Source: Candidatus Syntropharchaeum caldarium
GTDB lineage: Archaea; Halobacteriota; Syntropharchaeia; Syntropharchaeales; Syntropharchaeaceae
Length of the DNA stretch: 32,000 nucleotides
Assembly: GCA_001766815.1 (NCBI GenBank)
Contig: LYOS01000007.1
Coordinates: 13,393 to 45,392 of the forward strand
Direction of reading: 5' to 3'
Made by a program: the position numbers and the translations under genes. A model generated the notes under the pieces. That model was not told the origin of the DNA. It ran no database searches and saw only the letters and a list, made by a program, of their open reading frames with translations. Each line of letters starts with the position of its first letter. The stretch's first letter is position 1. This document shows positions 10,359-31,366 of the stretch, one piece after another.

Positions 10359-10530
10359 GAGGCGAAACAGGTCACAAAGAAGTGCAGGTAAAATTTTCAA
10401 AATCCTCCTTATTTTTATTCGCAATCCTTATAATCATTTACATTATAAATGGTATGTTATGAGAGCGATCACCACTGGTGGTGAATGTGCGAATAAGCGT
10501 TGTAAAATCGAAATCTGAGGTCGAGTAATT

Positions 10531-11874
10531 ATGTCAAAAAGAATTGTGATAATCGGGGGTGGTGATGCAGGAACTTATACACTGGAAGCGATCATGAAAA
10601 GAAAGGAGGATGTGGCGATAACTCTTCTAAAGAAGGACAGATATGGTTCTGTATCTATCTGCGGACTGCCTTTTGCTTTGCAGGGGATTTATCCGCTAAA
10701 AGATATTGAGCTACAGGAACCAGAATTCTTTCAGAGCAGGGGCATCGACTATCGAACCTTAACCGAGGTCACAGAAATTAATTTAGAAGCGAATAGTGTG
10801 ACGATTCAGACAGGAGAGGAGTTAGAATACGATTATCTTGTGATAGCAACAGGAAGCAGACCGTTTATCCCATCAATTCCGGGTGTGGAGCTTGAGGGAG
10901 TTTATACGGTAAAAGATATGGAGGATGGCGAGAGGATTGAGGTCGCTATGAATGATCCAGGTGTGAAAAACGCTGTTGTTATCGGTGCTGGAACAATCGC
11001 GCTTCAGGTTGCAGTTGCATTCTCTAAAAATAATATTAAGACCACGGTTACAAAACCCCGCCCTCTGATCCTTCGTTCAATGTTGGATCCTGATATCGCC
11101 TCAAAAGTTCAGAAAAAACTTGAAGAGCTGGAAATAAGGTTTATACTTGGAAAGGAGACGGTAGCTATAAAGGGCGATGGAGATGTTAAGTCAGTTTTGA
11201 TAGGGGATACTGAGGTTCCTGCTGATATAGTGGTGGCATGCGCGGGAATGCGTCCGAATGTTGATCTTGCGAAAGAAGCTGGGATAGAGATAGGTGAGAG
11301 TGGAGGAATCGCGACAGATCCATTTTTACATGTTAAAAAGGGAAGAGGATATATAGACAATGTATATGCCGCCGGCGATTGTGTGGAGGTCATAGATGCA
11401 ATTACACACCGCCCGAGGTTGAGCATGCTTGCCTCCACGTGTGTAACACAGGCTAAGGTAATATCCGATAACATATTTGGTGATAATTCATCTTTTGATC
11501 CAGTTTTAAGTCCAACCGTCGCCAATATCGCAGGTCTTCAGGTGGGATCTGTTGGGATCACCTCAGAGACCGCAAAAAGATACGGCATGAAGGTTATAAC
11601 CGGCAAAAAGGAGAAGCCTACAAAGCCGAGATATTATCCTGGAAGAAAGTCCATGCTGATGAAATTACTCTTCGATGCCTACTCTGAGCGGTTGGTAGGT
11701 GCACAGATAATCTCGGAGGATCAGGTTGCAGACCGTATAGATGAACTCAGCATCGCGATAAGGTCTGGCATGAGGGCCAGGGAATTACGTATGATGGAGA
11801 AGAGCTTTGACCCCTCTGTTGCATTGCACAGGGATGTGATGGCCGATGCGGCAGAGGATGCTCTAAATGTATAA
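10531..11874 (+). CDS. FAD-dependent pyridine nucleotide-disulfide oxidoreductase (NADH oxidase / CoA-disulfide reductase family)
   Basis: N-terminal Rossmann motif IVIIGGGDAGT, single redox-Cys motif SICGLPFAL typical of the Nox/CoADR family, a second dinucleotide fold VVIGAGTIALQ, and AAGDC near the C-terminal third. Confidence 0.8.
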   Translation: MSKRIVIIGGGDAGTYTLEAIMKRKEDVAITLLKKDRYGSVSICGLPFALQGIYPLKDIELQEPEFFQSRGIDYRTLTEVTEINLEANSVTIQTGEELEYDYLVIATGSRPFIPSIPGVELEGVYTVKDMEDGERIEVAMNDPGVKNAVVIGAGTIALQVAVAFSKNNIKTTVTKPRPLILRSMLDPDIASKVQKKLEELEIRFILGKETVAIKGDGDVKSVLIGDTEVPADIVVACAGMRPNVDLAKEAGIEIGESGGIATDPFLHVKKGRGYIDNVYAAGDCVEVIDAITHRPRLSMLASTCVTQAKVISDNIFGDNSSFDPVLSPTVANIAGLQVGSVGITSETAKRYGMKVITGKKEKPTKPRYYPGRKSMLMKLLFDAYSERLVGAQIISEDQVADRIDELSIAIRSGMRARELRMMEKSFDPSVALHRDVMADAAEDALNV

Positions 11875-12787: not shown

Positions 12788-13639
12788 GTGAACTTTATGG
12801 TAAAGGTTGGTTTTCATGTCTCGATTGCAGGCTCAATCGATCGGGCGGTTGATCGGGCGGTTGAAGCTCAATGTGATACATTTCAGATCTTCTCACGAAA
12901 TCCCAGAGGCTGGCAGAGTAAGGAGCTTTCACAAACTGCAATTAATAAGTTTATCGAGAAACTTGAAAGCTCGGGACTCTATCCGCCTGTTGTTCACATG
13001 CCTTACCTTCCAAACCTTGCATCACCCGATGAAGAGGTTTACAAAAAGTCTGTGAATGCACTCATTGCAGAGCTTGTAAGATGTCAGGAGCTCACGATTC
13101 CATATCTTGTCACGCATCTCGGCAGCCACAGAGGTAGCGGGATTGAGAAAGGATATGAGCGAGTTGCAGATGCGATAAAGACCGCGTTTGACGAGGTTGA
13201 AAATGATGTGATTATACTTCTTGAGACTACAGCAGGCACAAAAAACAGCATTGGAGGGTCATTTGAAGATATTAAAGCAATTATGAATCAAATTGATGAT
13301 ATAAACCGTATTGGCGTCTGCTTTGATACCTGTCATGTCTTTGTTGCAGGCTATGAGATTCGAACGACAGAAGGGCTTGAGAGAACGCTGAAGCATTTTG
13401 ATGAGGTGATCGGGCTTTCAAAGCTCAAACTTCTGCATATCAATGATTCAAAAGGGGATCTTGGCTCGAGGCTTGACAGGCATGAACATATCGGGTTTGG
13501 CTATATCGGTGAGGATGGCTTCAGACTGATCCTGCACGATCCGCGCTTGCGGGATCTACCGATGATACTTGAAACTCCTGTCGATGAACGATGCGATGAT
13601 CGTTGTAACATCGAGAAGGTGCGTGAGCTTGCAGGCTGA
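12788..13639 (+). CDS. nfo: Endonuclease IV (AP endonuclease family 2)
   Basis: FHVSIAGS, FQIFSRNPRGW, VTHLGSH, LETTAG, CFDTCH, LHINDSKGDLGSRLDRHEHIGFGYIG. The first ATG in frame, at 12797, may be the true start. Confidence 0.9.
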   Translation: MNFMVKVGFHVSIAGSIDRAVDRAVEAQCDTFQIFSRNPRGWQSKELSQTAINKFIEKLESSGLYPPVVHMPYLPNLASPDEEVYKKSVNALIAELVRCQELTIPYLVTHLGSHRGSGIEKGYERVADAIKTAFDEVENDVIILLETTAGTKNSIGGSFEDIKAIMNQIDDINRIGVCFDTCHVFVAGYEIRTTEGLERTLKHFDEVIGLSKLKLLHINDSKGDLGSRLDRHEHIGFGYIGEDGFRLILHDPRLRDLPMILETPVDERCDDRCNIEKVRELAG

Positions 13640-14276
13640 TATCGAGAGGATCATCGAAGGGTTGAGTGAAGCATATCGAGATAAGAAGACTGCAGTTATG
13701 AAAGTATCCCAGGTTAATGATCCATATCTTGTTCTGATCTCGTGTATCCTGAGCCTGCGAACGAAGGATGAGGTCACAGCTTCTGCCTCTAAACGCTTAT
13801 TTGCTCTTGCAAGAACCCCGGGGGAGATGGTCAAGCTTGAGGTGCGTGATATTGAAAATGCGATCTATCCTGTTGGATTTTATCGACGGAAAGCTAAACA
13901 GATCAAGGAGATCTCCCGTGTGCTTCTTGAAGATTATGATTCACAGGTTCCTGATGAACTGGATGAACTTCTGAAGTTCAATGGAGTTGGGAGAAAGACC
14001 GCAAATATCGTTATTACGGTTGGCTTTGGTAAGCCAGGGATTGCAGTTGATACGCATGTTCATCGCATCTCAAACAGGCTCGGGCTTGTTGAAACAAAAG
14101 ATCCAGATGCGACCGAATTTGCCTTGAGGGCGATACTCCCAGAAAAATACTGGATCTCCTTCAATGACCTGCTTGTGATGCACGGACAGACGATCTGCGC
14201 CCCCATAAGTCCAAAGTGTAGCATCTGTCCGATCACAGCCTACTGTAAGAGAAATGGAGTTCTGAGATCACGATGA
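13584..14276 (+). CDS. nth: Endonuclease III (HhH-GPD DNA glycosylase/AP lyase with 4Fe-4S cluster)
   Basis: HhH motif FNGVGRKTANIV, catalytic-region VDTHVHRISNRLG, and the C-terminal cluster CAPISPKCSICPITAYC. The start is ambiguous (TTG 13569, ATG 13584/13596, GTG 13623), and all candidates overlap the end of nfo. Confidence 0.88.
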   Translation: MNDAMIVVTSRRCVSLQADIERIIEGLSEAYRDKKTAVMKVSQVNDPYLVLISCILSLRTKDEVTASASKRLFALARTPGEMVKLEVRDIENAIYPVGFYRRKAKQIKEISRVLLEDYDSQVPDELDELLKFNGVGRKTANIVITVGFGKPGIAVDTHVHRISNRLGLVETKDPDATEFALRAILPEKYWISFNDLLVMHGQTICAPISPKCSICPITAYCKRNGVLRSR

Positions 14277-17100: not shown

Positions 17101-17706
17101 ATGAGCGGTGAACCGAGATTCAGGGATCTTATAGAGGAGCTGGTGAGTAAGGATTCACTTTCAATAAGCGCTATTCAGCGGCAACTTGAAAAAAAGGGCG
17201 TTAAAGAGCATCGATTAATAGTTACGGGCTATCTCAGGGCACTCAGAGACATGGGAATTGTTGAAGAACGAAAAGTTCCGCCTTCAAAGGTCTATTCACT
17301 AATATCGAAAGAAGAAAAGTCAGAGACAGATTTTTATAGTTATATAAAACAGGAGATCGAAGATCTTGATGTGGATGCAGAGGTTAAGCTTGCTGTTGCA
17401 GTTCTTCTCATAAATACACTATTCCATCGCCCCTGTTTCAGAATCGAACTTAAACGCCTGGGTACATCGTACGTTGAGAGTGAATTTGTTCGGAAGGTAG
17501 ATGGAAGTGCATATATCCGTGCAATCAACCAGAATAAGCTCGCAATATCAGATGATGAACCTGCATTTGAGTGTGTCACCGAGCTTCTCTCTACAGAGGT
17601 TGTTGATCTGATGATCAGGGTCCTATCCAACGTAGTGAAGGAGGTTGTAGATGTCAGCGGGCTGTATGAAAAATATCCTCAGAAGACGCTTGAATTTAAT
17701 CTCTGA
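17101..17706 (+). CDS. Hypothetical protein with probable N-terminal winged-helix domain
   Basis: An ORF with clean codon structure. SISAIQRQLEKKGVKEHRLIVTGYLRALRDMGIVEE looks wHTH-like. I recognise no family. Confidence 0.4.
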   Translation: MSGEPRFRDLIEELVSKDSLSISAIQRQLEKKGVKEHRLIVTGYLRALRDMGIVEERKVPPSKVYSLISKEEKSETDFYSYIKQEIEDLDVDAEVKLAVAVLLINTLFHRPCFRIELKRLGTSYVESEFVRKVDGSAYIRAINQNKLAISDDEPAFECVTELLSTEVVDLMIRVLSNVVKEVVDVSGLYEKYPQKTLEFNL

Positions 17707-18172
17707 GTTGCTCTTCGGTTCTCTGGTGATCGATCGAGAGGTCTGTCGCGATATCATTTCTTTTCTGGCCTTTAAGGTGATATTCCATCTGTTTTCTCGT
17801 TCCGCGTCTGACGAGAAAACCCTCCCGACAGAGCCGTGCAAGGTATGTTGATACAGTGCTCAGAGGAATATCGGTGGCGTAATTCAATTCATAACCTAAC
17901 TTCACATCTGATGATGTGAACCACCTGTTTTCAAATTCAAACTTTAAAAAAAGCCTTAAACGCTCTTTGAGTGTCATAGAAGATTCATTAACATCTTTTT
18001 CGCTATGAAGATAGGGACTCGATGAAGATCCGCCAATATGGTGCACGGGTATTCCAGCATCCTGCATAAATTTGATCAACTTTGCAGCTGTTTTTGGTGA
18101 TTTAACATCGTTTTCCGTTTCCACTGAGGTTTTAAATCCATCATCATCGATAATCTCAAGGTGGATCTTCAT
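17696..18172 (-). CDS. Hypothetical protein with C-terminal wHTH (putative transcription regulator)
   Basis: LSTVSTYLARLCREGFLVRRGTRKQMEYHL is wHTH-like. The track ORF extends to 18268; the internal ATG at 18172 (MKIHLEIIDDDG) is an equally plausible start. The gene is divergent from the MtaA-like gene. Confidence 0.45.
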   Translation of the reverse strand: MKIHLEIIDDDGFKTSVETENDVKSPKTAAKLIKFMQDAGIPVHHIGGSSSSPYLHSEKDVNESSMTLKERLRLFLKFEFENRWFTSSDVKLGYELNYATDIPLSTVSTYLARLCREGFLVRRGTRKQMEYHLKGQKRNDIATDLSIDHQRTEEQLRD

Positions 18173-18461
18173 CGCAGTCCCTCGCTGGCATCCATCTATC
18201 CCCTCAGATTGGTTAATCACACATTGTGAAGCTGTTTTCTGAATGCCAGTTAAATTGATATACGTCATACTATTTAAACTTTTAGTGGAAATAAAGGTTT
18301 TAACACGTTATTCACTTAGTGAAAGTTTGTGTTCATGATCTATACTACTTAAAAGTGCTGCATTACCCATTTTATTTCTTTCACAGGATGACTTAAAGAA
18401 AAGATCGTGACGCTTAAATAGTAATAGGTAGAATGAGGGGTAGATAGATGGAGGAATCATT

Positions 18462-22699: not shown

Positions 22700-23608
22700 A
22701 TGAATTTTAAAGCCTGGATCAGGATCTCAAAGCCATTCAAGCATCAGACGATGATATATCCATTCCTCGTTGGAACTGCGATTGCATACCACGTGCTTGG
22801 CACGATCGACCCTCTGATCTTTGTGGTCTCCTTTTTCGCTGTTATCGTCATGGTTGAGGCTGCATACATCTCAAACGACTATTTTGACTATGATACCGAT
22901 CTTGGGAATCCATCAAAGTTTACAGGTGGGAGCAAGGTACTCGTCGAGGGCGAACTCCAGAAAGAGGTTGTTTTGAAGGTTACAGCAGGTTTAATTGCTT
23001 TTGCCTTCATACTGGGGCTCATCATACAGTTTGGCCTGAAGACTGGTCCTTTTTCAATTCCAATCGGTGCGTTCGGGATGTTTCTTGCATACTCATACTC
23101 AGGAAAACCTCTCAGACTCTCATATCATGGTCTTGGCGAGATTACGCTTGCGTTCAACAATGCATGGACGCCGATCTTTGCAGGCTATTACCTCCAGGTT
23201 CACAGACCGGATTTACTTCCAAGCATCGTTGCAATTCCCTACATACTCGGTGTATTCTCCCAGAAACTTCTTCGAGAGATCCCTGATCTTGAATATGACA
23301 TGAAAGCGGGAAGGAGAAATCTTGCGGTGATACTTGGAAAAGAGCATGCGGGAAGACTATATCTCGCATCATTAATTCTCACAATCATATCATTACTCCT
23401 TATGATCCTCTATCTACAGAATCTTTATCCCTTTACGCTTCTTCTGATAATACCTGCGAGCATGCTTCTTCCTAATCTCTGGTATGGGATCAGGAGAGGA
23501 TGGAAAGGGTTAAAAGATCTTGAGCGTATGAATGATCTTGGATTTAAAGCGATGTTTGCGATACCTCTCGTCTTCACGCTGACATTTATTCTTGCAGGAG
23601 TGATTTGA
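22700..23608 (+). CDS. UbiA-family aromatic prenyltransferase (MenA/MqnP-like)
   Basis: Polytopic membrane protein with the first Asp-rich motif NDYFDYDTD and a second motif region EIPDLEYDMKAGRRNLAV. It starts 2 nt after the cofH stop. Confidence 0.75.
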   Translation: MNFKAWIRISKPFKHQTMIYPFLVGTAIAYHVLGTIDPLIFVVSFFAVIVMVEAAYISNDYFDYDTDLGNPSKFTGGSKVLVEGELQKEVVLKVTAGLIAFAFILGLIIQFGLKTGPFSIPIGAFGMFLAYSYSGKPLRLSYHGLGEITLAFNNAWTPIFAGYYLQVHRPDLLPSIVAIPYILGVFSQKLLREIPDLEYDMKAGRRNLAVILGKEHAGRLYLASLILTIISLLLMILYLQNLYPFTLLLIIPASMLLPNLWYGIRRGWKGLKDLERMNDLGFKAMFAIPLVFTLTFILAGVI

Positions 23609-24645
23609 TGATCGAAAGGCTATTTGATAACGATACAGTCGGAACGGGGTGCTTCAGTTACCTTCCAGCAGAGTTTGTGTGGGCGGTTACAAAACGTTGC
23701 AACTTAAGCTGCTTACACTGCTCGATCGAGGAGTCTGATGAAGGAGAGCTCACAACAGAGGAGGGAAAGCTTCTGATCGAGGATGCAGCAGCACTTGGGG
23801 ATGTCAAATTTGCGTTAACAGGGGGCGAGCCTCTACTGCGTAAAGACATTTACGAGCTCATAAGCTATGCCTCAGGTTTTGATATGCAGATCGTGATGGC
23901 GACAAATGCAACGCTTATAACCCGAGAAGTTGCAGAAAAACTTGTCGATGCAGGGCTTGAGCGTTTTGGGGTGAGCATCGATGGTGTCGGCGATGCACAT
24001 GATAAAATCAGGGGGGTTAAGGGTGCGTTTGAGCGCACAATGAAGGGGCTTGAGGCTGCAAAGGATGCAGGCCTGAGCTTTCAGTTTCACTCGATGGTCA
24101 CAGCATACAACCTTGATGAGATCCCGAAGATAATCGATCTTGCAGAAGAGCTTGGTGCATACAGGATCTACTTTGTTTACTTAATCCCGATGGGAAAGGC
24201 CCGTGAGATCCCGGAGGCGTGTATCGGGGTTGAAGAGAACAAAAAGTTTTTTGAGTACATCTATGAGCGCCAACATTCATCCAGCGTCTGGCTCAAACCG
24301 ATCTGTAACCCGCAGTACTGGCTGTACTTGAAGTCTAAGGAGAATGACTCATTTAAGATGACAGGATGTACCGCAGGGATTACGAGATTTCACATCTTCC
24401 CGAACGGTGATGTTGCACCCTGTGCTTATCTGCCTGTTAAGGCGGGGAGTTTGAAGGAGAAGAGATTTGGTGAGATTTTAGAGACGAGTGAGGTTTTCAG
24501 GAAGCTTCGCAATCGGGAGCTAAATGGTAATTGTGGTGTGTGTATCCATCGAGGGGAGTGCGGGGGGTGCAGATCAAGGGCTTATGGTTTTTCAGGGGAT
24601 TATTTAGGGGAGGATCCGGTGTGTGGGTGGTGGGAGGAGGGGTGA
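23608..24645 (+). CDS. Radical SAM protein with C-terminal SPASM domain (AhbD/NirJ-like architecture; specific function unassigned)
   Basis: CNLSCLHC radical SAM cluster motif, and C-terminal Cys-rich CTAG...CAY...GNCGVCIHRGECGGCRSRAY...DPVCGW (SPASM). The ATG overlaps the ubiA stop (TGATG). Confidence 0.8.
   Translation: MIERLFDNDTVGTGCFSYLPAEFVWAVTKRCNLSCLHCSIEESDEGELTTEEGKLLIEDAAALGDVKFALTGGEPLLRKDIYELISYASGFDMQIVMATNATLITREVAEKLVDAGLERFGVSIDGVGDAHDKIRGVKGAFERTMKGLEAAKDAGLSFQFHSMVTAYNLDEIPKIIDLAEELGAYRIYFVYLIPMGKAREIPEACIGVEENKKFFEYIYERQHSSSVWLKPICNPQYWLYLKSKENDSFKMTGCTAGITRFHIFPNGDVAPCAYLPVKAGSLKEKRFGEILETSEVFRKLRNRELNGNCGVCIHRGECGGCRSRAYGFSGDYLGEDPVCGWWEEG
24520..24645 (+). repeat. 3' end of the radical SAM/SPASM gene: copy 1 of a triplicated att-like segment
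   Basis: Aligns without indels to 26196-26321 (18 mismatches in 126 nt by my count), with the same frame and the stop at the same position. The core TGCAGATCAAGGGCTTAT lies at 24568-24585. Confidence 0.8.
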
Positions 24646-24646
24646 A

Positions 24647-24651
24647 TTTTT
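24647..24651 (+). terminator. Oligo-T tract right after the radical SAM gene stop
   Basis: TGA at 24643-24645 is followed by a then ttttt, after which an AT-rich spacer begins. Confidence 0.3.
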
Positions 24652-24758
24652 ATAAGCAGTCTACTATAGTAAAGTCAAAAAGTATATATTCAAAAATATA
24701 ATAGATACACAATGTCAAAGAAGGGTCCCAGGACGCTTAAAGGGGTGATAAGTCGAAT

Positions 24759-25214
24759 ATGAAAACCACTGCAACTCTTATAATAATAGCAATCATGACA
24801 GTTACAATCTTTACAGGATGTATTACAGTCGTTACACCCCCATTACCTCAAGCATCACCAAGTGAGGTTGTTGAAACTTTCGCTTCCTGGTATGGGGACG
24901 AATATCTCGAAGGGTGTTATAGTTTGATGTCGACAGAATACAGGAATTCAACAGATTTGAAGACTTTTAAAGAAAGAATAAATCAGTGCGAAAAAGGAGG
25001 GTTTCATCACAAGTTTGTCAGAGTAAAAAGTGAGAAAATAAATGGAGACTTTGCATCAGTAAGGATTGTGTATAGGAGAAAAGGACCTTTCTTTGATCTT
25101 TTTTGCATCATTGAAGACTTGATTGAGGATCCAAAAACTAAAACCGTGAATTTGGTTAAAGAAGAGGATGGATGGAAACTCACGGAACTGCACTGCGAAC
25201 TTAGAGGTAAATGA
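24759..25214 (+). CDS. Putative secreted lipoprotein, small NTF2-like/DUF4878-like
   Basis: Signal peptide with a lipobox-like FTGC (MKTTATLIIIAIMTVTIFTGCITVV), followed by a ~125-aa soluble domain. Confidence 0.5.
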   Translation: MKTTATLIIIAIMTVTIFTGCITVVTPPLPQASPSEVVETFASWYGDEYLEGCYSLMSTEYRNSTDLKTFKERINQCEKGGFHHKFVRVKSEKINGDFASVRIVYRRKGPFFDLFCIIEDLIEDPKTKTVNLVKEEDGWKLTELHCELRGK

Positions 25215-25374
25215 GAGATACAATGGTTAAAGTGGTGATTTAGCTTACAACTTAGTTTCTCCACGAAATTCGCCTTCTAATACTCCAAAACCTCACTAAT
25301 CCAAAAGATCCAACACCCACCAATCCCCAAAAAAGAATAACCACAATCCCTCTTCACGGCTTCCAGACCTTGAG

Positions 25375-25845
25375 CTATTCTACTCTTTCAAAATCGGCGT
25401 CGTTTGTTGCGATGTTTGTGATTCCATAGGCTTTACAACAAGCAGCATGTAAAGCATCCCGTGGAAACAGGTGGCATTCCCTTGAGAGATCCAGTGCAAT
25501 CTTTGAAATCGAATAATCTATGCTCACAACCTTCAGATTGCCTAAGGAAGTAAGATAATCCAGATACTCGTAAAATTTTGTTACTGGCTCGAGGCATTTA
25601 TCTAAAATTTTTGATATAGCCTGCTTAACAGCCATGGTTTCCTTAATTCCTGTTAGTTCTTTCCCTTTTTGAATCATCAGAACATAAGAAACCTCGTCAA
25701 TTATGAGCGGGGAGACGAAACCCTCCCTTTTCCCATCCTCTACTTCTTCCAAAAATCTCATGCAATTATCGCCATATTTAGGATGGTTCGTCAGAACGTA
25801 TGCAAATACGTTAGCATCTATGAATATCGAATTCATACTCCTCAT
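25375..25845 (-). CDS. vapC: PIN-domain toxin (VapC family)
   Basis: IFIDANVF (first acidic residue), IIDEVSY, DALHAA and ATNDADFERV make up the typical PIN acidic quartet layout. An antitoxin-like gene overlaps directly upstream. Confidence 0.85.
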   Translation of the reverse strand: MRSMNSIFIDANVFAYVLTNHPKYGDNCMRFLEEVEDGKREGFVSPLIIDEVSYVLMIQKGKELTGIKETMAVKQAISKILDKCLEPVTKFYEYLDYLTSLGNLKVVSIDYSISKIALDLSRECHLFPRDALHAACCKAYGITNIATNDADFERVE

Positions 25846-25999
25846 GAACCTCCTCCAACCCCTCCCAGCACTTCACGATCCCAAGCATTCTTCTTGTCAT
25901 ACCACTTCGTACCTCAATCTCAACCACCTCTCCCTCCTTCAAATCCAGCTTCTCAAGCGGCTTCAATACGTTGTTCTCATACACGGCTTTTATGATCAT
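25811..25999 (-). CDS. AF2212-like (PF01954-type) antitoxin, VapB-equivalent
   Basis: MIIKAVYENNVLKPLEKLDLKEGEVVEIEV is the hallmark of the AF2212/DUF104 antitoxin family. ATG at 25999 is preferred over TTG at 26011. The gene overlaps the vapC start. Confidence 0.75.
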   Translation of the reverse strand: MIIKAVYENNVLKPLEKLDLKEGEVVEIEVRSGMTRRMLGIVKCWEGLEEVHEEYEFDIHRC

Positions 26000-26005
26000 G
26001 GAGGA

Positions 26006-26024
26006 CACCAATCGTTAATTGGTG
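26006..26024. promoter_or_regulatory. Perfect inverted repeat CACCAAT-n5-ATTGGTG between an A/T box and the antitoxin start (candidate TA autoregulation operator)
   Basis: Arms at 26006-26012 and 26018-24 are exact reverse complements. The A/T-rich tract gattaaaaaaata at 26031-26043 lies upstream in the minus-strand sense. Confidence 0.35.
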
Positions 26025-26179
26025 GTTGGTGATTAAAAAAATACCTTTGATGAAGCTGGTAAACCCACTCCAAAATGGACTGGAGTGTAAGCGAAAGCTC
26101 ATCTATTTTTTCACCAACCACCATAAATACACCCCCAGCCTCGTAAGTTAAAGAGATAATTAAGCTGTTCTGGGATGGA

Positions 26180-26321
26180 TGGTAAGAGGAGGAACCTAAA
26201 CGGCAACTGTGGCGCGTGTATCCATCGAGAGGAGTGCGGAGGATGCAGGTCAAGGGCTTATGGGTTTTCAGGGGATTATCTGGGGGAGGATCCGGTGTGT
26301 GGGTGGTTTGAGGTTGAATGA
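26180..26321 (+). pseudogene. Orphan 3' end fragment of a radical SAM/SPASM gene (copy 2 of the att-like segment)
   Basis: Translates in frame as ..RRNLNGNCGACIHREECGGCRSRAYGFSGDYLGEDPVCGWFEVE*, against RNRELNGNCGVCIHRGECGGCRSRAYGFSGDYLGEDPVCGWWEEG* in the intact gene. No upstream body of the gene is present. Confidence 0.8.
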
Positions 26322-26340
26322 CCGATCCATCAGGACTTAG

Positions 26341-26349
26341 CTTTATATC
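26341..26349 (+). promoter_or_regulatory. TATA-like box (ctttatatc) ~28 nt upstream of the DUF488-1 ATG; implies a leaderless or very short-leader transcript
   Basis: The sequence and its spacing to the ATG at 26374. No SD-like motif lies in between. Confidence 0.4.
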
Positions 26350-26373
26350 AGAAGAGCGCAAACAACATTTAAG

Positions 26374-26880
26374 ATGAAAAACGGCTCACCACCCCAGCTC
26401 ACTATCTACACAATCGGACACAGCAACATCGAACTTGAGGATTTTTTGAGCTTGCTGGAGGGTATTGAGGTGGTTGTGGATGTAAGGAGCGTTCCATTCA
26501 GTAAATACGCTCCTCAGTTCAATCTAAAAAATGTAAAAAGTGCACTCGAATCGATCGGTATTGAGTACAAATATCTTGGAAATGTCCTTGGAGGAAGACC
26601 AAAGGATGAGGACTGTTATGAGAATGGAAAAGTAGTTTACGAAAATATAATGAGAAAAGAGTGGTATAGAAAAGGTATCTCGGCATTGATTGAGCTTGCA
26701 GCGAAGAAGAAAGTGGCGATCATGTGTAGCGAAGAGGATCCTTACCGGTGTCACAGGCATCATCTGATCTCACAGAGCTTACTTAAAGAGGGAATGGAAA
26801 TCTTTCATATAAGGGGTGATGGAAGAAAGGAGAATGTGGAGAAGCCGAAAAAGCGGACAGTTCAACTTACGCTGGTATGA
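26374..26880 (+). CDS. DUF488 family protein (paralog 1)
   Basis: LTIYTIGHSN, VVVDVRSVPFSKYAPQF, YKYLGNVLGG and the C-terminal MCSEEDPYRCHRHHL (the C-x-E...CHR hallmark of DUF488). Confidence 0.85.
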   Translation: MKNGSPPQLTIYTIGHSNIELEDFLSLLEGIEVVVDVRSVPFSKYAPQFNLKNVKSALESIGIEYKYLGNVLGGRPKDEDCYENGKVVYENIMRKEWYRKGISALIELAAKKKVAIMCSEEDPYRCHRHHLISQSLLKEGMEIFHIRGDGRKENVEKPKKRTVQLTLV

Positions 26881-27311
26881 AGATATACACGATCGGATTT
26901 ACAAGAAAGAGTGCGAAGGAGTTCTTTGAGATACTCAAAAGAAACGATGTCAAGCAGGTAGTGGATATAAGGCTCAATAACACATCTCAGCTTGCTGGGT
27001 TCACAAAGAAAAACGATCTGGCGTATTTTTTAAAGGAGCTATGCGGAATAGAGTATTACCATTTTAAATTTCTTGCCCCAACAAAGGAGATCAGAGATCG
27101 ATACATCGAGAGCAAGGATTGGGATGTTTATGTTGAAGAATATCTCAGGCTACTTGAGGAGAGAGGCGTTATTGATAAACTTGAGAGGTCGTTCTTTGAG
27201 ATGAGAACATGCCTTTTATGTAGCGAGCCAACAGCAGAACACTGCCACAGGAGATTATTGGCTGAATATCTCAAGAAACAGTGGGGGGATGTTGAGGTGG
27301 TGCATTTGTGA
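26877..27311 (+). CDS. DUF488 family protein (paralog 2, highly diverged from paralog 1)
   Basis: MKIYTIGFT, VVDIRLNNTSQLAGF and LLCSEPTAEHCHRRLL. The ATG overlaps the upstream stop (ATGA at 26877-26880). Confidence 0.8.
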   Translation: MKIYTIGFTRKSAKEFFEILKRNDVKQVVDIRLNNTSQLAGFTKKNDLAYFLKELCGIEYYHFKFLAPTKEIRDRYIESKDWDVYVEEYLRLLEERGVIDKLERSFFEMRTCLLCSEPTAEHCHRRLLAEYLKKQWGDVEVVHL

Positions 27312-30010
27312 AGAAGAGGGTGGTTATTACTGATTTAAGCAGAATGGAAGGTGATAGGGTATGTATATTCGGCATCGACGAAGAAAGAAGACCAATAAGA
27401 CCCGTAATTTCTTATCGAGGGGTAAGAGAAAGTGATCTCTTTGATGAAGAAGGTAACCAGATTATAAAGCCATTTGCAGAGGTAGAGTTTGATTTTCTCC
27501 ATCCTTTGCCTAAACCACCGCATACAGAAGATTGGGAGATAAACACGATATACAAGCCAAGATTGATAAAAAATCTCTCAGAGGATGAAAGAAAGGTGTT
27601 TTTAGAGGAAGTACTGGATGGATCGGTTAAAGAGATCTTTGGAGCGGTGATTCATGAAAATCGTTACATAAATCCATGGGAAGGGGAGAGATCACTCGGA
27701 ACGGTGAAGATAAAAGAGGTTTTGGATGTTAATTATTCGATGAAAGAAGAAGGGAAATACAAATACAGGCTAAAATTTTTAGATGTAGCCGGAGATGCTT
27801 ATGACCTACCGGTCACGGATTGTGCATTCAGGAGGTATTGTGATCATGAGAGAATTCAAAATCAGAAGAGCATGGGACTTATCGGGGCTGAGCTGCAGAG
27901 GAGATTTAACCAGAGCAAAGTTTATCTTCGTGTGGGTCTTGCGAGACCTTTTCCTGAAAAGTACTACAGGTGTTATCTACAGATCTCTGGTTTATACACT
28001 TTCCCGGATTATAAGGGTGAGGATGGAGATTGTGGAAATGAAGTCGATATGGAATCAGCGCATCAGGCACTGCAAAAATACTTTGGCTATACATCATTTC
28101 TTCCCCTCCAGAAAGACATTATCAGGGATGTTCTCCTGAAAAACGATATTTTTGTGCTGATGCCAACTGGCGGTGGTAAATCTCTGTGTTATCAGTTACC
28201 TGCACTTCTTCTGGATGGCGTAACGGTGGTTATCTCACCACTCATTGCATTGATGAAGGATCAGGTGGATGATTTGAGGGCAAACGGGATTGCTGCAGCC
28301 TGCATCAACAGTTCACTGAGTCCCGATGAGATACAGGCGGTAAAAACAAAATTGCTGAAGAATAGAATCAAGATTCTTTATGTGGCTCCCGAAAGAATGA
28401 TGCAGCCTGGTTTTTTATCATTTTTACAGCGATTGAATATCGGCCCCATCGCGGTTGATGAAGCTCACTGTATCTCTGAGTGGGGGCATGATTTCAGGCC
28501 TGAGTATCGCCGATTGAGCCTGCTCAAAGAAATCTTTCCTCAAACACCTTTAATCGCATTGACAGCGACCGCTATTACTGCTGTACAGAGAGATATTATA
28601 AGAGAGTTAAGGTTAAACGATCCGAAGATATATAAAGCGAGTTTTAACCGAAAAAACTTGTTCTATCAGGTCAAACCAAAATATGATGGCTATTCCCAAT
28701 TGATCCAGTATTTAGAGAATCACAAAGGTGATTCAGGGATAATTTATTGTCAAAGCCGTAAATCTGCCGATGAGCTGGCAAATAAACTTCAAAAAGAGAG
28801 ATATCGCGTTTTACCCTATCATGCTGGGTTGAGTTCTGATTTGAGGAACGAGACGCAGAATAAATTTGTTAAAGATGACTTTGAGATAATCGTGGCAACA
28901 ATAGCCTTCGGGATGGGGATAGATAAATCGAATATCCGTTTTGTGGTCCATTATGACCTCCCAAAGAATCTTGAAAGTTATTATCAGGAAACGGGCAGGG
29001 CTGGAAGGGACGGGGATAAGGCAGATTGCATTCTCTTTTTCAGCCGTGGAGATAAGGCAAAAATAGAGTACTTTATCGAGCAGAAATCGGAGGAAAGAGA
29101 GAGGCGAATTGCGTATAAGAAGTTGCACGATATGGTTGAGTTTTGTGAGAGTCAGGGCTGTCGCAGGAAGATCCTGTTGAAGTACTTTGGGGAAGCCTAT
29201 GATAAAACGAACTGTGGAAGTTGTGATAATTGCATAGAACCGAAAGAAAAGATCGATGGAACCAACATCGCTCAAAAGATCATATTATGTGTCTCCCAAG
29301 TTAAAGAAAGATTTGGCGTGAACTATATCGCTGATGTTCTGTGCGGCTCAAAGAGTCAAAAGATAATCCGCAATCGACATGATATCTTATCAATTTATGG
29401 TACTGGCAGGGAATACTCAAGAAAACGGTGGCAGACTTTTACCAGGGAACTAATTCAACTTGGGTTTCTGAGATTGGAAGGTGATAGATACCCAATCGTT
29501 AAGCTTACACAGAAGAGTCAGGATATTTTATCTGGGGAAGAGCAAGTTTTACTGACCAGGCCGGTAGAAGAAGTTAGGATAACAGAAAAATCTGCTGACG
29601 AGGACTTTGATCATGATTTATTTGAAATGTTGAGAGGTTTGAGGAAGAGGCTCGCTGATGCAGAAGGTATGCCACCGTATATCATCTTTCATGATTCAAG
29701 TTTGAAGGCGATGGCAAGATATTTTCCCCAGACTCTATCCGACTTTCGGAAGATAGATGGTGTCGGTGAAAGCAAGCTGGAGAAGTATGGGGAAATATTC
29801 GTGAAAGAGATTGCGGATTACTGTCAAGATTATAGAATCGAGCATATACGAAAAGTTCATCCTCGAGCGTATGAACCATGGACAAAAGATGAAGATGAAA
29901 GACTAATCAGAGAATACAGGTCTGGTAAAAGTATAGAAGAGCTTATGGAACTATTTGGAAGACAAAGCGGTGGTATTAAGTCAAGATTGAAGAAACTGGG
30001 GTTACATTGA
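27308..30010 (+). CDS. recQ: RecQ-family DNA helicase with an extra ~245-aa N-terminal domain of unknown type and a C-terminal HTH tail
   Basis: The helicase core runs from aa ~250: FGYTSFLPLQ, MPTGGGKSLCYQLPA, VVISPLIALMKDQ, DEAHCISEWGHDFRPEY, LTATA, FGMGIDKSNIRFVVHYDLP, YYQETGRAGRDG. It also has a Zn module (CESQGCRR...CGSCDNC), an RQC region, HRDC (YIIFHDSSLKAMARYFPQTLSDFRKIDGVGESKLEKYG), and the tail WTKDEDERLIREYRSGKSIEELMELFGRQSGGIKSRLKKLGL. The GTG start overlaps the upstream stop (GTGA at 27308-27311). Confidence 0.9.
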   Translation: MKKRVVITDLSRMEGDRVCIFGIDEERRPIRPVISYRGVRESDLFDEEGNQIIKPFAEVEFDFLHPLPKPPHTEDWEINTIYKPRLIKNLSEDERKVFLEEVLDGSVKEIFGAVIHENRYINPWEGERSLGTVKIKEVLDVNYSMKEEGKYKYRLKFLDVAGDAYDLPVTDCAFRRYCDHERIQNQKSMGLIGAELQRRFNQSKVYLRVGLARPFPEKYYRCYLQISGLYTFPDYKGEDGDCGNEVDMESAHQALQKYFGYTSFLPLQKDIIRDVLLKNDIFVLMPTGGGKSLCYQLPALLLDGVTVVISPLIALMKDQVDDLRANGIAAACINSSLSPDEIQAVKTKLLKNRIKILYVAPERMMQPGFLSFLQRLNIGPIAVDEAHCISEWGHDFRPEYRRLSLLKEIFPQTPLIALTATAITAVQRDIIRELRLNDPKIYKASFNRKNLFYQVKPKYDGYSQLIQYLENHKGDSGIIYCQSRKSADELANKLQKERYRVLPYHAGLSSDLRNETQNKFVKDDFEIIVATIAFGMGIDKSNIRFVVHYDLPKNLESYYQETGRAGRDGDKADCILFFSRGDKAKIEYFIEQKSEERERRIAYKKLHDMVEFCESQGCRRKILLKYFGEAYDKTNCGSCDNCIEPKEKIDGTNIAQKIILCVSQVKERFGVNYIADVLCGSKSQKIIRNRHDILSIYGTGREYSRKRWQTFTRELIQLGFLRLEGDRYPIVKLTQKSQDILSGEEQVLLTRPVEEVRITEKSADEDFDHDLFEMLRGLRKRLADAEGMPPYIIFHDSSLKAMARYFPQTLSDFRKIDGVGESKLEKYGEIFVKEIADYCQDYRIEHIRKVHPRAYEPWTKDEDERLIREYRSGKSIEELMELFGRQSGGIKSRLKKLGLH

Positions 30011-30039
30011 GGTGTTACAGATTTCTGGACATACTTTCC

Positions 30040-30186
30040 AGATCACAGAGTGTGAGGGAAGAGCTCTTCAAGAACTTGAGAGGCGGAGGCTTAACGGAAA
30101 CTATAGTGTGTGTAAGAACCGTTGTAAGCACGGAGGCTGCAGGTCAAGGGCTTATACGAGGTAGTATCTGGTTTGAGGTAGGGTAG
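30040..30186 (+). pseudogene. Second, more decayed orphan 3' end fragment of a radical SAM/SPASM gene (copy 3 of the att-like segment)
   Basis: Frame 0 reads ..ALQELERRRLNGNYSVCKNRCKHGGCRSRAYTR* (stop at 30162-30164). The 18-nt core TGCAGGTCAAGGGCTTAT (30138-30155) is identical to 26244-26261. The tail tggtttgaggt (30169-30179) is identical to 26304-26314. About 45 nt present in copy 2 between core and tail is missing. Confidence 0.65.
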
Positions 30187-30427
30187 AGATTATGTGGTAG
30201 TTGTGGTTAGTTTTATTAAAGAAGGTATTCCAAAACATTTAGATAAGATAAGGTCACCTTAATATACGGATCATAAAGGGAAAAACAGAGGTGGGGGTAA
30301 ATCAAAATAGCTCTACGTACCAGATCCCTCCAGAAAAGATCATCGCAAGATGGACTATATGGCCTAAATCGACTCCCTCCGACCCCCCTCACAAAGTATA
30401 TCTGCATGCACTTTGAATATAACAGGG

Positions 30428-31366
30428 ATGAAATTTTGCGAGCGGTGCAGAAAGAAAGAGGCAGATGTGGTTCTAAGTACTGTGCGTTTCTGTGAACCCT
30501 GCTTCATTGAGTATTTTGAAAGGCAGGTACAACGCGCGATTGACGGTGAAAAACTTGGCGCGGAGATGTTCTCACGAGATAGCCGCATACTAATGGCGGT
30601 CTCAGGAGGCAAGGACAGCATGACGCTCTGGAACGTCCTGAACGACCTCGGCTATGAGACCTGTGGGCTTCACATCGATCTCAACATCGACGAATACTCA
30701 GAGGTTTCGAGGAGAGTCGTTGAGAACTTTGCCGCTTCAAAAAGCCTCGACCTGATAGTGGTGGACTTAAGGAAAGAATACGGGAAAAGTCTGATGGAGC
30801 TGGCGATGAGGGATGCGTGTTCTGCATGCGGCTTGGTGAAGCGTTATTTGATGAATAAAGTCGCTTATGAGAAGGGTTTTTCGGTGCTTGCCACCGGGCA
30901 CACGCTTGATGATGAGTGTGTCACACTTCTTGGAAATTTGACGCGGTGGAACCTGGAATTTCTGCAGCGCCAGTATCCCATCTTAGAAAGCACACACCCG
31001 AAGCTTGTGCGCAAAGTAAAGCCGCTGTTCAGGATTTCTGACGAAGAAACGGCGGCATACGCAAGGATAAAGCGGTTGGAGTTTGTAAGAGAGAAGTGCC
31101 CGCTGGCAAGCGGCGCAACCTCACTCAGCTACAAGAAAGTGCTGAACGAGCTTGAGCAGCGGCACCCCAGCTTGAAAAAAGCTTTTTACCTCGGATTTTT
31201 GAAGAATAAATCGCTGTTCGGCAAGGAAGAAAATTTCGAGCTCAAGACGTGTGAATCCTGCGGCATGCCTACGGCAAACGTCGGACTTTGCGCATTCTGC
31301 AAGCTTTTAGAACGTCCGAAGCGGCGGCACGATGAGAAAAGCAAAGTTAAACCCTTGTCCATCTAA
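30428..31366 (+). CDS. PP-loop tRNA thiolation ATPase (TtuA/NcsA/TtcA family)
   Basis: N-terminal Zn-ribbon CERC...CEPC, PP-loop AVSGGKDS, CSACG, ATGHTLDDE and a C-terminal Zn-ribbon CESCG...CAFC. ATG at 30428 is preferred over TTG at 30413. Confidence 0.8.
   Translation: MKFCERCRKKEADVVLSTVRFCEPCFIEYFERQVQRAIDGEKLGAEMFSRDSRILMAVSGGKDSMTLWNVLNDLGYETCGLHIDLNIDEYSEVSRRVVENFAASKSLDLIVVDLRKEYGKSLMELAMRDACSACGLVKRYLMNKVAYEKGFSVLATGHTLDDECVTLLGNLTRWNLEFLQRQYPILESTHPKLVRKVKPLFRISDEETAAYARIKRLEFVREKCPLASGATSLSYKKVLNELEQRHPSLKKAFYLGFLKNKSLFGKEENFELKTCESCGMPTANVGLCAFCKLLERPKRRHDEKSKVKPLSI

Follow-up and report, generated by a model that had tools for sequence, protein, structure and literature searches.

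Small gene cassettes arrayed behind a radical SAM/SPASM gene vary between strains of Candidatus Syntrophoarchaeum

Accretion at the 3' end of the fda gene of Streptococcus thermophilus, in the ICESt1/ICESt3 family, was reportedly described by Pavlovic et al. in 2004 and Bellanger et al. in 2011. The locus analysed here resembles the CIMEs (cis-mobilizable elements) found at fda: insertion is targeted at a protein gene's 3' end, integrase-less islets lie between direct gene-end repeats, tandem elements are separated by a chimeric site, and newcomers stack onto older elements. The fda system differs in having related ICEs with a matching integrase and short att cores, whereas the present array has yielded no integrase and has repeats of 50-180 nt, arms located upstream of the crossover, single modules of 0.5-4.5 kb and an archaeal host. 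CIMEs and accretion have been defined (PMC5704250), and the array is an archaeal instance of this already known tandem accretion of integrase-less islets.

Other systems share part of these features. In the Tycheposon islands of Prochlorococcus, newcomers displace older elements, old partial copies are scattered and genes for defence are among the cargo (10.1101/2020.12.28.424599); these islands, however, target a tRNA gene, many of their elements have a tyrosine recombinase, and fragmented integrases occur, none of which is found here. Integrons similarly consist of one-module cassettes lacking promoters and mobility genes, in a one-directional array with a fixed address and fast turnover between strains, but no IntI gene adjoins the present array, and its spacer repeats, derived from the gene end, show no tendency to form hairpins (z-scores -0.07 to 1.1) and are not attC sites. 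Integrated elements of the SSV (suicidal) and pTN3 types also have archaeal hosts and tandem elements recombining by homology, but target a tRNA gene or their own integrase gene and leave integrase halves behind, whereas neither integrase nor fragment is present here. The archaeal integrase Int-pTN3 gives homologous-recombination-like products on identical segments of at least 104 bp, which is in the size range of the arms described below (PMC8371274). Core-gene-flanked defence hotspots of E. coli and Pseudomonas aeruginosa likewise have a fixed address and strain-specific defence systems (PMC10121019); those of E. coli mostly hold recognisable integrase-bearing mobile elements between two conserved core flanks, whereas here conservation is limited to the left flank, with gene-end remnants marking the boundaries. 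Finally, in IMEX elements and pdif modules, mobilised by host Xer, modules without a recombinase of their own lie between recombination sites, but these are dif-like, their inverted arms of 11 nt being separated by a spacer of 6 nt (PMC8371274), and none occurs in the crossover zone defined below.

The DNA analysed (the window) is a 32-kb stretch from Candidatus Syntrophoarchaeum, an uncultured alkane-oxidising archaeon. The intact target gene, radical SAM/SPASM (23605..24645, + strand; Pfam Radical_SAM and SPASM), lies in the gene row CofH/MqnC-like, UbiA, rSAM. Its protein is 97% identical to that of one Ca. Syntrophoarchaeum MAG and resembles AhbD/NirJ2, at scores under the family cut-offs (NCBIfam heme b synthase, 309 bits against a cut-off of 500). 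The part recurring downstream, copy 1 (24457..24645, +), is within the working gene. Copy 2 (26191..26321, +; nhmmer E = 1.6e-33, profile positions 59-186) is a gene-end remnant composed of an arm (26191-26306) and a tail (26307-26321, WFEVE-stop).

As claimed in a previous, sequence-only reading of this DNA, the segment 24520-24645 recurs at 26196-26321 over 126 nt, with 18 mismatches, no indels and both frame and stop position retained; BLAST gave E = 2e-38 for this pair, the same family was recovered by a repeat search, and 12 of the 18 mismatches fall at third codon positions. The 18-nt core TGCAGGTCAAGGGCTTAT, also reported there, was found exact in copies 2 and 3 (26244 and 30138) and with one mismatch in copy 1 (24568), and the tail TGGTTTGAGGT is indeed common to copies 2 and 3 (26304-26314 and 30169-30179) and absent from copy 1. 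The decayed third copy (30018..30186, +), previously placed at ~30040-30186, proved to be real, although its start lies closer to 30018, where the RecQ gene has just ended with its stop codon: a profile built on the last 189 nt of eight orthologues matches it at 30061-30155 (nhmmer E = 3.5e-12). It lacks two internal stretches; its arm (30018-30168) is frameshifted, with an internal loss of 24 nt, and 10-11 nt of gene sequence are missing at the join. Its tail (30169-30186, WFEVG-stop) matches, at 17 of its 18 positions, the gene ends of relatives carrying WFEVG-stop (L004, L012, L013 and L023).

Copy 2 is classified as non-coding, since its orthologue in the near-identical strain L020 has an in-frame stop. 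Between its arm and the gene there are 10 synonymous but only 2 nonsynonymous changes (P = 1.6e-5), and the arm is 14-23% diverged from each sampled allele; on this evidence the arms derive from working alleles.

Cassette A (24646..26190; 95.4% identical to L020 2973-4496) contains a lipoprotein-like ORF (24759-25214, +), a PIN-domain VapC (25375-25845, -; Pfam PIN) and an AF2212-like VapB (25811-26011, -; Pfam AF2212-like), with an inverted repeat upstream of vapB (26020-26042 and 26101-26123). Cassette B (26322..30017, +), which at this locus shares 99% identity with L020 and 80% with L023, contains two DUF488 genes (26374-26880 and 26877-27311, both +; Pfam DUF488) and a DuOB-RecQ helicase (27308-30010, +; Pfam DuOB, DEAD, RQC and HRDC), the latter scoring 782 bits in NCBIfam, above the cut-off. 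By its matches to the PADLOC models PDC-M45B (2e-52) and PDC-M45C (2e-60), cassette B is a candidate defence module. The islets had been described as AT-rich, at 33-40% GC against 43-58%; the contrast is real but smaller, with 39.5% for islet A and 41.3% for islet B against 45.9% for the upstream core, and every core window of the same length has a higher GC content than the islets. The proposed k-mer profile also revealed a compositional break, the tetranucleotide distance being 0.26-0.31 for the islets and 0.177 +/- 0.022 for core windows.

The sequence past the outermost tail (30187..30270, +), which holds the TATA-like TTTTATTAAAG, is read as the stretch that originally followed the gene and was later displaced. 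Tail and flank together (30170-30247) are 88.6% identical (E = 1.8e-22) to a segment following a HicAB cassette in the sister lineage L030 (3464-3542), while the radical SAM gene itself shows only 70.6% nucleotide identity between the two. Further right, a TtuA/NcsA-like PP-loop gene (30413..31366, +; Pfam ATP_bind_3, NCBIfam) forms the right core flank in this genome only: its link to the outer flank is seen in the window alone, homology to the 96% relative L019 begins only at about 30290, and other genomes have other gene sets on this side. The empty site predicted earlier, with the radical SAM gene followed directly by the TtuA-like gene, was found in no relative examined.

Comparison with a handful of related metagenome contigs indicates that the array of small cassettes at the 3' end of the radical SAM/SPASM gene varies from strain to strain. 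Four Syntrophoarchaeum or Syntropharchaeia lineages have this gene with differing small modules behind it. Besides VapBC and HicAB toxin-antitoxin pairs and DUF488-DUF488-DuOB-RecQ, the modules include a HerA-type ATPase with a D12 methyltransferase, and a transglutaminase with a PDC-M34B-like protein; toxin-antitoxin pairs and candidate antiviral modules are thus stacked behind one housekeeping gene. Each cassette is 0.5-4.5 kb in size and carries one module, and a direct partial copy of the gene 3' end is located at every readable cassette boundary, except the far end of each array. Three copies, including the gene, are present in the window, four remnants in L020 (c1', c2', c2b' and c3'), three in L023 and one in L030, all in direct orientation. 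Profile searches gave arms of 50-170 nt, unequal in length and upstream of the crossover; the left boundaries of the remnants vary (profile positions 34, 48, 59, about 84, 106, 125 and 138), while the remnants end in the 3' end region of the gene, at the stop or no more than a few nt from it, except for c2b', whose 3' part is lost.

Near-identical strains (L020, L021 and L022) carry extra cassettes at copies 1, 2 and 3. Insertions at copies 1 and 2 are bounded by further gene-end remnants, c1' and c2b'; for the insertion at copy 3, no far-side remnant was found within the contig. In L020, the extra sequences are a DUF559-containing cassette upstream of copy 1, a 4.5-kb HerA/535-aa/D12-methyltransferase cassette at copy 2 and a PDC-M34B-like ORF at copy 3. 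Identity between L020 and the window is 94% for copy 1 and its flank (24518-24752), 95% for islet A with the arm of copy 2, and 99% for islet B with the arm of copy 3. Contigs only 3-6% apart in the radical SAM gene already differ in what follows its stop codon, and behind this gene L023, another species, and L030 each carry remnant-bounded cassettes not shared with the others. The arrangement is therefore not the same in all relatives, and the sequence-only proposal of repeated 3'-end insertion, with a replaced end and the old end pushed distally, is supported by these strain-variable, remnant-bounded cassettes.

Such comparisons also locate the joints. Copy 1 and remnant c1' are 86% identical over 24518-24594 and 99% identical from 24595 through 24752; between copy 2 and c2' identity continues up to GGTGTGTGGGTGGT, after which the tails diverge; homology between copy 3 and c3' stops at 30168. 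Copy 2 and c2' have a common arm, different tails and different right-hand cargo, and c2b', at the right end of the extra L020 cassette, is unlike copy 2: arms, therefore, go with the left cassette and tails with the right one. From these data the crossover zone is placed, by inference, at 24595-24631, i.e. from -51 to -15 relative to the end of the stop codon. Each of the three mapped junctions fits this zone, at a resolution no better than about 10-35 nt, and the zone coincides with the longest exact run common to copies 1 and 2 (25 nt, -39 to -15).

Serial single-crossover insertion is well supported by these sequence comparisons, and the repeats in the window point firmly to at least two insertions. 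Incoming cassette DNA, most simply a circle, would carry its own copy of the last 50-180 nt of the gene and would be inserted by crossing over once with the resident copy, at a point 51 to 15 nt from the gene end. The last five codons and stop of the working gene would then be those of the incomer, so that, on the model, 24631-24645 (WWEEG-stop) would belong to the following cassette. The upstream arm of the incomer and the old tail would be joined into a direct-repeat remnant on the far side, and older cassettes, together with the original downstream flank, would be displaced outward. We infer that later gain, loss and exchange of cassettes proceed through the repeats by homology-dependent recombination, for which the host RadA pathway, or an in-trans integrase with homologous-recombination-like products, would be candidate machinery; a true integrative element probably gave rise to the first duplication.

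A probability of about 0.5 is assigned to this reading, i.e. a cassette array inserted in the radical SAM 3' end by single crossovers, with later homology-dependent turnover through the repeats. Signs of homology-driven exchange are the arm layout, the crossover at the longest run, the mosaicism of the gene and the divergence pattern of copy 3 and c3'. Site-by-site comparison and sliding identity showed that the 3' third of the gene is mosaic, with two patches (24339-24385 and 24504-24517, +) that match the alleles of L004/L005, from a species ~18% diverged, while the remaining gene matches L001/L003; copy 3 and c3' are ~12% diverged beside a 99%-identical block, and the differing sites match gene-type sequence. 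Further support comes from the compositional break of the islets, from the failure to find a recombinase in the window or the cassettes, from the activity of Int-pTN3 cited above, and from the breaks of metagenome contigs at the repeats, which suggest that several junctions coexist in one population. Against this reading, neither a circular form nor an excision junction nor an empty site was observed; the three junctions also fit a single short site of fixed position, the outcome expected from a site-specific enzyme; copies 1 and 2, only 86% identical, are a poor substrate for homologous recombination today, although the insertion events may have involved copies more similar than the present ones; homology alone does not account for the first duplication; and an integrase-bearing relative at the site could be unsampled.

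Site-specific accretion is a tentative alternative, deserving serious consideration. The cassettes would be decayed CIME-like elements that keep attL and attR and have lost the integrase, and a tyrosine or serine integrase acting in trans, from elsewhere in the genome or from a visiting element, would insert and excise them by using a short core among the final ~50 nt of the gene. What such accretion classically leaves behind is the pattern seen here, an intact gene whose end has been replaced and whose former end lies further out; the 18-nt core is perfect in the otherwise decayed copy 3, and precedents exist in CIMEs and accretion (PMC5704250) and in Tycheposon islands, with partial tRNA copies between elements (10.1101/2020.12.28.424599). 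All three mapped junctions fit the one zone, -51 to -15, but their clustering does not separate the two models, because this zone is also the longest identical run. The absence of any visible integrase, already remarked in the sequence-only reading, extends further: searches of the 32-kb window turned up no site-specific recombinase, integrase, integrase fragment or excisionase, those of at least eight cassette types from four lineages were equally negative for the last three, and the cassettes of L020, L023, L001 and L004 yielded no recombinase. Likewise, no inverted-repeat core structure is present in 24560-24680, no candidate attP was detected among 2.9 million viral contigs, and a fixed core neither needs nor predicts long, unequal, recently copied upstream arms. 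One IS-type transposase fragment was noted on a related contig.

It appears unlikely that linear DNA from related cells, running from the interior of a donor radical SAM gene into the cargo, was captured by an illegitimate joint at one end and a homologous one at the other, no circle being involved and the truncated donor ends being passengers. The differing left boundaries of the remnants, the mosaic gene and the copy 2 arm, which looks fresh from a working foreign allele, agree with this view, but a remnant and its right-hand cargo should then come from one donor, a prediction broken by copy 2 and c2'. Their different tails, together with the mid-repeat switch of c1' from 86% to 99%, place the joints inside the repeat and not at its left edge; moreover, all remnants but c2b' reach the 3' end region of the gene.

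That no insertion occurred, and that copies 2 and 3 were left by a tandem duplication in place or by a neighbouring paralogue since lost, is very improbable. A more distant relative, L014, does have a second radical SAM/SPASM gene directly adjacent, whose 3' end is ~70% identical to copy 1 over 68 nt, close to the 72% of copy 3. Copy 2, however, is not an old paralogue, since it retains 86% identity to the gene and its changes show the pattern of purifying selection; the copy 3 tail (WFEVG-stop) is specific to orthologues of this gene, and the LNGN...CRSRAY stretch of copy 3 is nearer to orthologues than to the L014 paralogue. The islets, in addition, differ in composition, and cassette content varies between strains at 95-99% identity. 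Strain-variable cassettes, in-repeat junctions and the copy 2 substitution pattern refute this reading in practice.

That the repeats led to unrelated contigs being fused into a chimera during assembly of a metagenome bin is hardly credible: several public contigs do break at these repeats, but the joins of A to copy 2 and of B to copy 3 recur in three independent assemblies (L020, L021 and L022), those of the gene to the lipoprotein and of the copy 2 tail to DUF488 in L023, and that of the copy 3 tail to the flank in L030 and L031.

The radical SAM/SPASM gene of the window is intact (23605-24645), and its final 126 nt are repeated at 26196-26321: as counted in the sequence-only reading, 18 positions differ and no indel is present, so that frame and stop position are preserved. 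A profile built on the last 189 nt of eight orthologues matched this second copy at 26191-26318 (E = 1.6e-33) and a third, decayed copy, past the RecQ gene, at 30061-30155 (E = 3.5e-12); the same repeat family was recovered by a repeat search of the window. The 18-nt core (24568-24585, 26244-26261 and 30138-30155) and the 11-nt tail common to copies 2 and 3 (26304-26314 and 30169-30179) were likewise confirmed. Copy 3, previously placed from about 30040, was instead found to start at about 30018, eight bases past the RecQ stop codon, and to carry a frameshift and internal losses. Direct repeats of the 3' end of the target gene bracket each inserted segment, both in the window (copies 1-3) and in the related metagenome contigs L020, L023 and L030. 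An inverted 24-nt match to the gene at 25287-25310 was taken as chance; it was not recovered by the profile search.

The gene shares 97% protein identity with that of L001, a Candidatus Syntrophoarchaeum MAG contig, and is preceded by housekeeping genes (GatA, a CofH/MqnC-like radical SAM gene, UbiA prenyltransferase) and, farther upstream, by type IV pilus genes, a class I tRNA synthetase gene and MqnA-type genes. Exact-match look-ups with the radical SAM protein, as 346 aa and as 345 aa, gave no entry. The repeats delimit two islets, A (24646-26190) and B (26322-30017), whose lower GC content is real, at 39.5% and 41.3% against 45.9%, but smaller than the contrast of 33-40% against 43-58% first estimated from spot counts. 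A compositional break was confirmed, since both GC and tetranucleotide distance of the islets fall outside the range of core windows (for GC, all windows of equal length).

Islet A contains a lipoprotein-like ORF and a VapBC pair on the minus strand (PIN, 1.6e-17; AF2212-like, 8e-15), in which the gene for the PIN-domain toxin is preceded by a small antitoxin gene overlapping it by 35 nt. Just upstream of vapB, a 23-nt inverted repeat (26020-26042 and 26101-26123; 83% complementary, 58-nt spacer), kept in L020, is probably the operator of the pair. Islet B contains two DUF488 genes and a RecQ helicase gene with an N-terminal DuOB domain. The DUF488 proteins correspond to PADLOC families PDC-M45B (2e-52) and PDC-M45C (2e-60), with nearly full-length matches, and the helicase scores above the NCBIfam RecQ cut-off. 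PDC-M45A was absent from the best 25 PADLOC families matched by DuOB-RecQ, and the DuOB domain taken alone had no match in PADLOC or in the plasmid collection; a search of the phage collection with the whole region returned generic RecQ motif matches only, and no paper on PDC-M45, or on DUF488 with RecQ or DuOB, came up in the literature. The full-length homologues of DuOB-RecQ (27308-30010) that are closest beyond Syntrophoarchaeum are bacterial, from Nitrospiraceae, with about 70% identity, which suggests that the module has crossed between domains of life.

Comparison with related genomes, based throughout on metagenome contigs, revealed that the DNA past the stop codon differs in almost every lineage sampled. 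The next feature is a 346-aa lipoprotein gene in L001, L003 and L004, AT-rich DNA in L005, a small ORF in L012 and L013, and a second radical SAM gene in the more distant L014. L012 and L023 are 94% identical until the stop codon and unrelated beyond it; similarly, L001 and L003 diverge from the window from the stop codon onward. RecQ homologues were found on L020, L021 and L022 (99% identity) and on L023, from Ca. Syntrophoarchaeum sp. GoM_oil (78%).

The closest arrangement is that of L020, in which islet A with copy 2 is 95% and islet B with copy 3 is 99% identical to the window. Its locus starts with sequence found 3' of the gene in L001, and three additions are present: a cassette ahead of the remnant resembling copy 1 (c1'), with a truncated gene for the 346-aa lipoprotein, one for a DUF559 endonuclease-like protein and a 190-aa ORF; a 4.5-kb cassette at copy 2, encoding a HerA-type ATPase, a 535-aa protein and a D12 methyltransferase, with a decayed remnant at its right end; and a PDC-M34B-like ORF fused with the copy 3 tail. 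The last ORF (122 aa, L020 12848-13216) begins within the remnant c3': the old gene end supplies its first residues (MRWDPVCGWW...), and what was left over thus now serves to begin a new gene. In L023 the gene is followed by a lipoprotein gene (80% identical to that of the window), a remnant, a transglutaminase gene, a second remnant, the DUF488-DUF488-RecQ module and a third remnant. The RecQ gene is there split (8781-11659) into a 745-aa ORF and a 149-aa HTH_40 ORF, and the module may be decaying in GoM_oil. A sister lineage (L030-L032; 74% protein identity for the gene) features the gene, a HicB-HicA pair and a remnant.

All the remnants of the window, L020, L023 and L030 are in direct orientation. 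Their left ends vary, between profile positions 34 and 138, and every remnant but one reaches the 3' end region of the gene, at the stop codon or within a few nt of it, the exception being L020 c2b', which has lost its 3' part. Eight contigs (L003, L005, L012, L013, L021, L022, L024 and L025) end 54-235 nt past the gene, or start or stop within a remnant, which is the behaviour expected of an assembler when several alternative junctions coexist in one sample. In L014 (10001-13782), a relative at 71% protein identity, a paralogous radical SAM/SPASM gene comes directly after the gene, with a B12-binding radical SAM gene next; this may be the ancestral operon, lost or moved in Syntrophoarchaeum. 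Copy 3 was also considered as a relic of such a paralogue, and this was rejected on its tail and motif.

The position of the joints was derived from pairs of related remnants. Relative to the window gene, c1' is 86% identical over 24518-24594, a value that rises to 99% at 24595 and stays there past the stop codon and over 100 nt of flank. Copy 2 and its L020 counterpart c2' are identical until GGTGTGTGGGTGGT; beyond it the last five codons differ (WFEVE versus WWEEG), as does the cargo. The homology of copy 3 and c3' stops at 30168, and the remnant at the right end of the extra L020 cassette is unlike copy 2. On these grounds it was concluded that the joint lies inside the repeat, within -51 to -15 as counted from the end of the stop codon, and that the tail (the last five codons and the stop) goes with the right-hand cassette, the arm upstream of the crossover with the left-hand one. 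This pattern of joint, tail and arm would result if a circle bearing an arm, a tail and cargo entered the resident gene end by one crossover. The target gene itself remains whole, its end having been exchanged; the tail varies according to the right-hand cassette, and the presumed original end is found at the far side. All three mapped junctions are compatible with the -51 to -15 interval, part of which (-39 to -15) is the longest stretch, 25 nt, over which copies 1 and 2 match exactly. No inverted repeats (arms of at least 6 nt, spacer of 2-12 nt) were found in 24560-24680.

The outermost tail (WFEVG-stop) and the next 80 nt or so (window 30170-30270) are 88.6% identical to L030/L031 3464-3560, although the genes of L030 and the window share only 70.6% nucleotide identity. 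The matching stretch of L030 sits past the HicAB cassette, and WFEVG-stop is a common gene ending in other species. From this alignment the stretch is read as the probable original gene end and flank, displaced outward in both the window and L030 lineages. It is unusually conserved, contains a TATA-like TTTTATTAAAG and a tandem TGTGGTAGT/TGTGGTTAGT, had no Rfam match and gave no RNA fold signal, and may represent a promoter, a site of protein binding or a piece acquired by recent transfer. The empty site predicted earlier, with the gene directly adjoining the TtuA-like gene, was not found among the relatives, nor was a circular form seen; in sister lineages the TtuA-like gene has other neighbours, and the link between the array and this gene is present in the window contig only. 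The left flank (UbiA and the radical SAM gene) is common to L020, L023 and the window, and three different right flanks follow: DUF359 and FEN1 in L020 (after 13216), CobT on the minus strand in L023 (after 11805) and TtuA/TrmI in the window (after 30412). Gene order is thus interrupted at the array.

The arm of copy 2 shows 10 synonymous and 2 nonsynonymous differences from the gene (P = 1.6e-5 versus the neutral expectation) and diverges by 14-23% from each sampled allele; it was concluded from this that the arm belonged until recently to a working gene of another lineage. It has decayed little since, although its L020 orthologue has already gained a stop codon; decay is far stronger in copy 3 and in the L020 remnant at 8978-9012. 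The working gene is itself a mosaic, in which patches at 24339-24385 and 24504-24517 match alleles of L004/L005, a species about 18% diverged and co-occurring in the same sample series as L003, and the remainder is 98-100% like L001/L003. Copy 3 and c3' differ by about 12% beside a block that is 99% identical, and the differing sites carry gene-type sequence. As judged from these alignments, homology-driven exchange is visible in the gene patches and in the differences between copy 3 and c3'.

In line with the first reading, which noted no integrase at the site, no recombinase domain is present in the whole 32-kb window. No integrase, excisionase, integrase fragment, Cas1 or site-specific recombinase was found in at least eight cassette types from four lineages, a small sampling. 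The sole mobility-related match in the cassettes is to DUF4277, where contig L001 ends (13287-13769), 2.2 kb past the gene; this domain is typical of the N-terminus of IS-type transposases, and the match was therefore assigned to an insertion sequence within the cassette region of L001. Four queries (the protein, the 18-nt core, the crossover zone and the conserved element downstream) were run against 2.9 million viral contigs, and none gave an attP candidate.

The preferred reading, held with a probability of about one half, is that the array turns over through its own repeats in a homology-dependent way: an initial event would have seeded the site, and subsequent gains and losses would proceed through the repeats. 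The arms are long, unequal and recently copied, and their position upstream of the joint serves no purpose in a fixed-core reaction. The clustering of the joints could suggest one fixed site; homologous recombination would, however, be channelled to the same zone, because copies 1 and 2 have their longest stretch of perfect identity there. An enzyme may also take part in homology-dependent turnover: the archaeal integrase Int-pTN3 is reported to yield products resembling those of homologous recombination on identical 104-bp segments (PMC8371274), and a trans-acting enzyme is therefore compatible with a homology-dependent outcome.

Integration at gene 3' ends with a replacement end, tandem accretion and integrase-less islets between att repeats are established phenomena, one example being the CIMEs found at fda in Streptococcus thermophilus; such elements are derivatives of ICEs or IMEs. 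The locus shares with them the direct repeats of a gene end, the intact gene with its end replaced and an occupancy varying among close relatives. It differs in that no matching integrase was found in related elements at the site, neither in the window nor among the cassettes of four lineages, a small sampling. Classical site-specific mobilisation in trans, of the CIME type (PMC5704250), is retained as a possible, less favoured explanation, and little probability is given to readings other than this and repeat-driven turnover. Partial gene copies also occur in tycheposon islands, where they derive from tRNA genes (10.1101/2020.12.28.424599). What distinguishes the locus from the established cases is the archaeal host, the single small module in each cassette, the failure to find an integrase across several genomes and the long arms upstream of the joint.

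Other families were compared by their defining features. Unlike an integron, the array has no IntI or attI beside it (the neighbours are CofH-like, UbiA and the radical SAM gene, with no tyrosine recombinase domain found) and no attC-type hairpins between cassettes: DNA folds of both strands of copies 1 and 2 gave z-scores of -0.07 to 1.1, with no hairpin potential. Rfam had no match over 24400-30500. A promoter and terminator scan remained at the level of shuffled sequence, the model used being a sigma-70 one, unsuited to archaea. Casposons and transposons have a short target-site duplication, whereas the duplicated segment is here 50-180 nt of a gene end; no transposase or Cas1 was found in the window and the islets have no terminal inverted repeats. 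There are no int(N)/int(C) halves as in SSV-type elements, all islet ORFs being accounted for with intergenic gaps of 52-402 nt, and no dif-like site (11-nt inverted arms, 6-nt spacer) in 24560-24680 as in Xer-dependent elements (IMEX, pdif). Since these features were tested and are absent, the locus is outside the integron, casposon, SSV-type and Xer-dependent families.

A bolder reading, tentative and on balance rather unlikely, is that the last 130 nt or so of the gene act as a portable address: any DNA with a copy could leave one genome as a loop and enter another by crossing over, whether through homology alone or through an enzyme of the host or of a visitor whose products resemble those of homologous recombination, so that a population of uncultured alkane-oxidising archaea would shuffle single defence modules in an integron-like manner, with neither a dedicated integrase nor attC. 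The defence role of the cassettes is suggested by family matches. The assembly of defence islands is well described in bacteria with recognisable mobile elements, much less so in archaea and hardly in uncultured lineages such as Syntrophoarchaeum. The locus displays its steps: modules are added singly, each addition leaves a dated scar, and strains 1-5% apart differ by whole cassettes. If exchange runs on the repeats alone, it would represent a simple, recombinase-free circulation of immune genes, and repeated 3' ends of core genes would become a practical search rule for such arrays; should an integrase act in trans instead, the locus reveals where it attaches, along with a natural set of elements that carry cargo only. 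Either way, three candidate archaeal defence modules are provided: DUF488-DUF488-DuOB-RecQ, the HerA-type ATPase with the 535-aa protein and the D12 methyltransferase, and the PDC-M34B-like protein.

Elsewhere in the window, two ORFs with no Pfam match, of 201 aa (plus strand) and 190 aa (minus strand), occupy 17101-18268. Kinship with the L020 cassette ORFs of equal length was considered and rejected, the sequences being unrelated. The two ORFs lie in the core patch of lowest GC content (38-41%), and the segment may be another small foreign insert.
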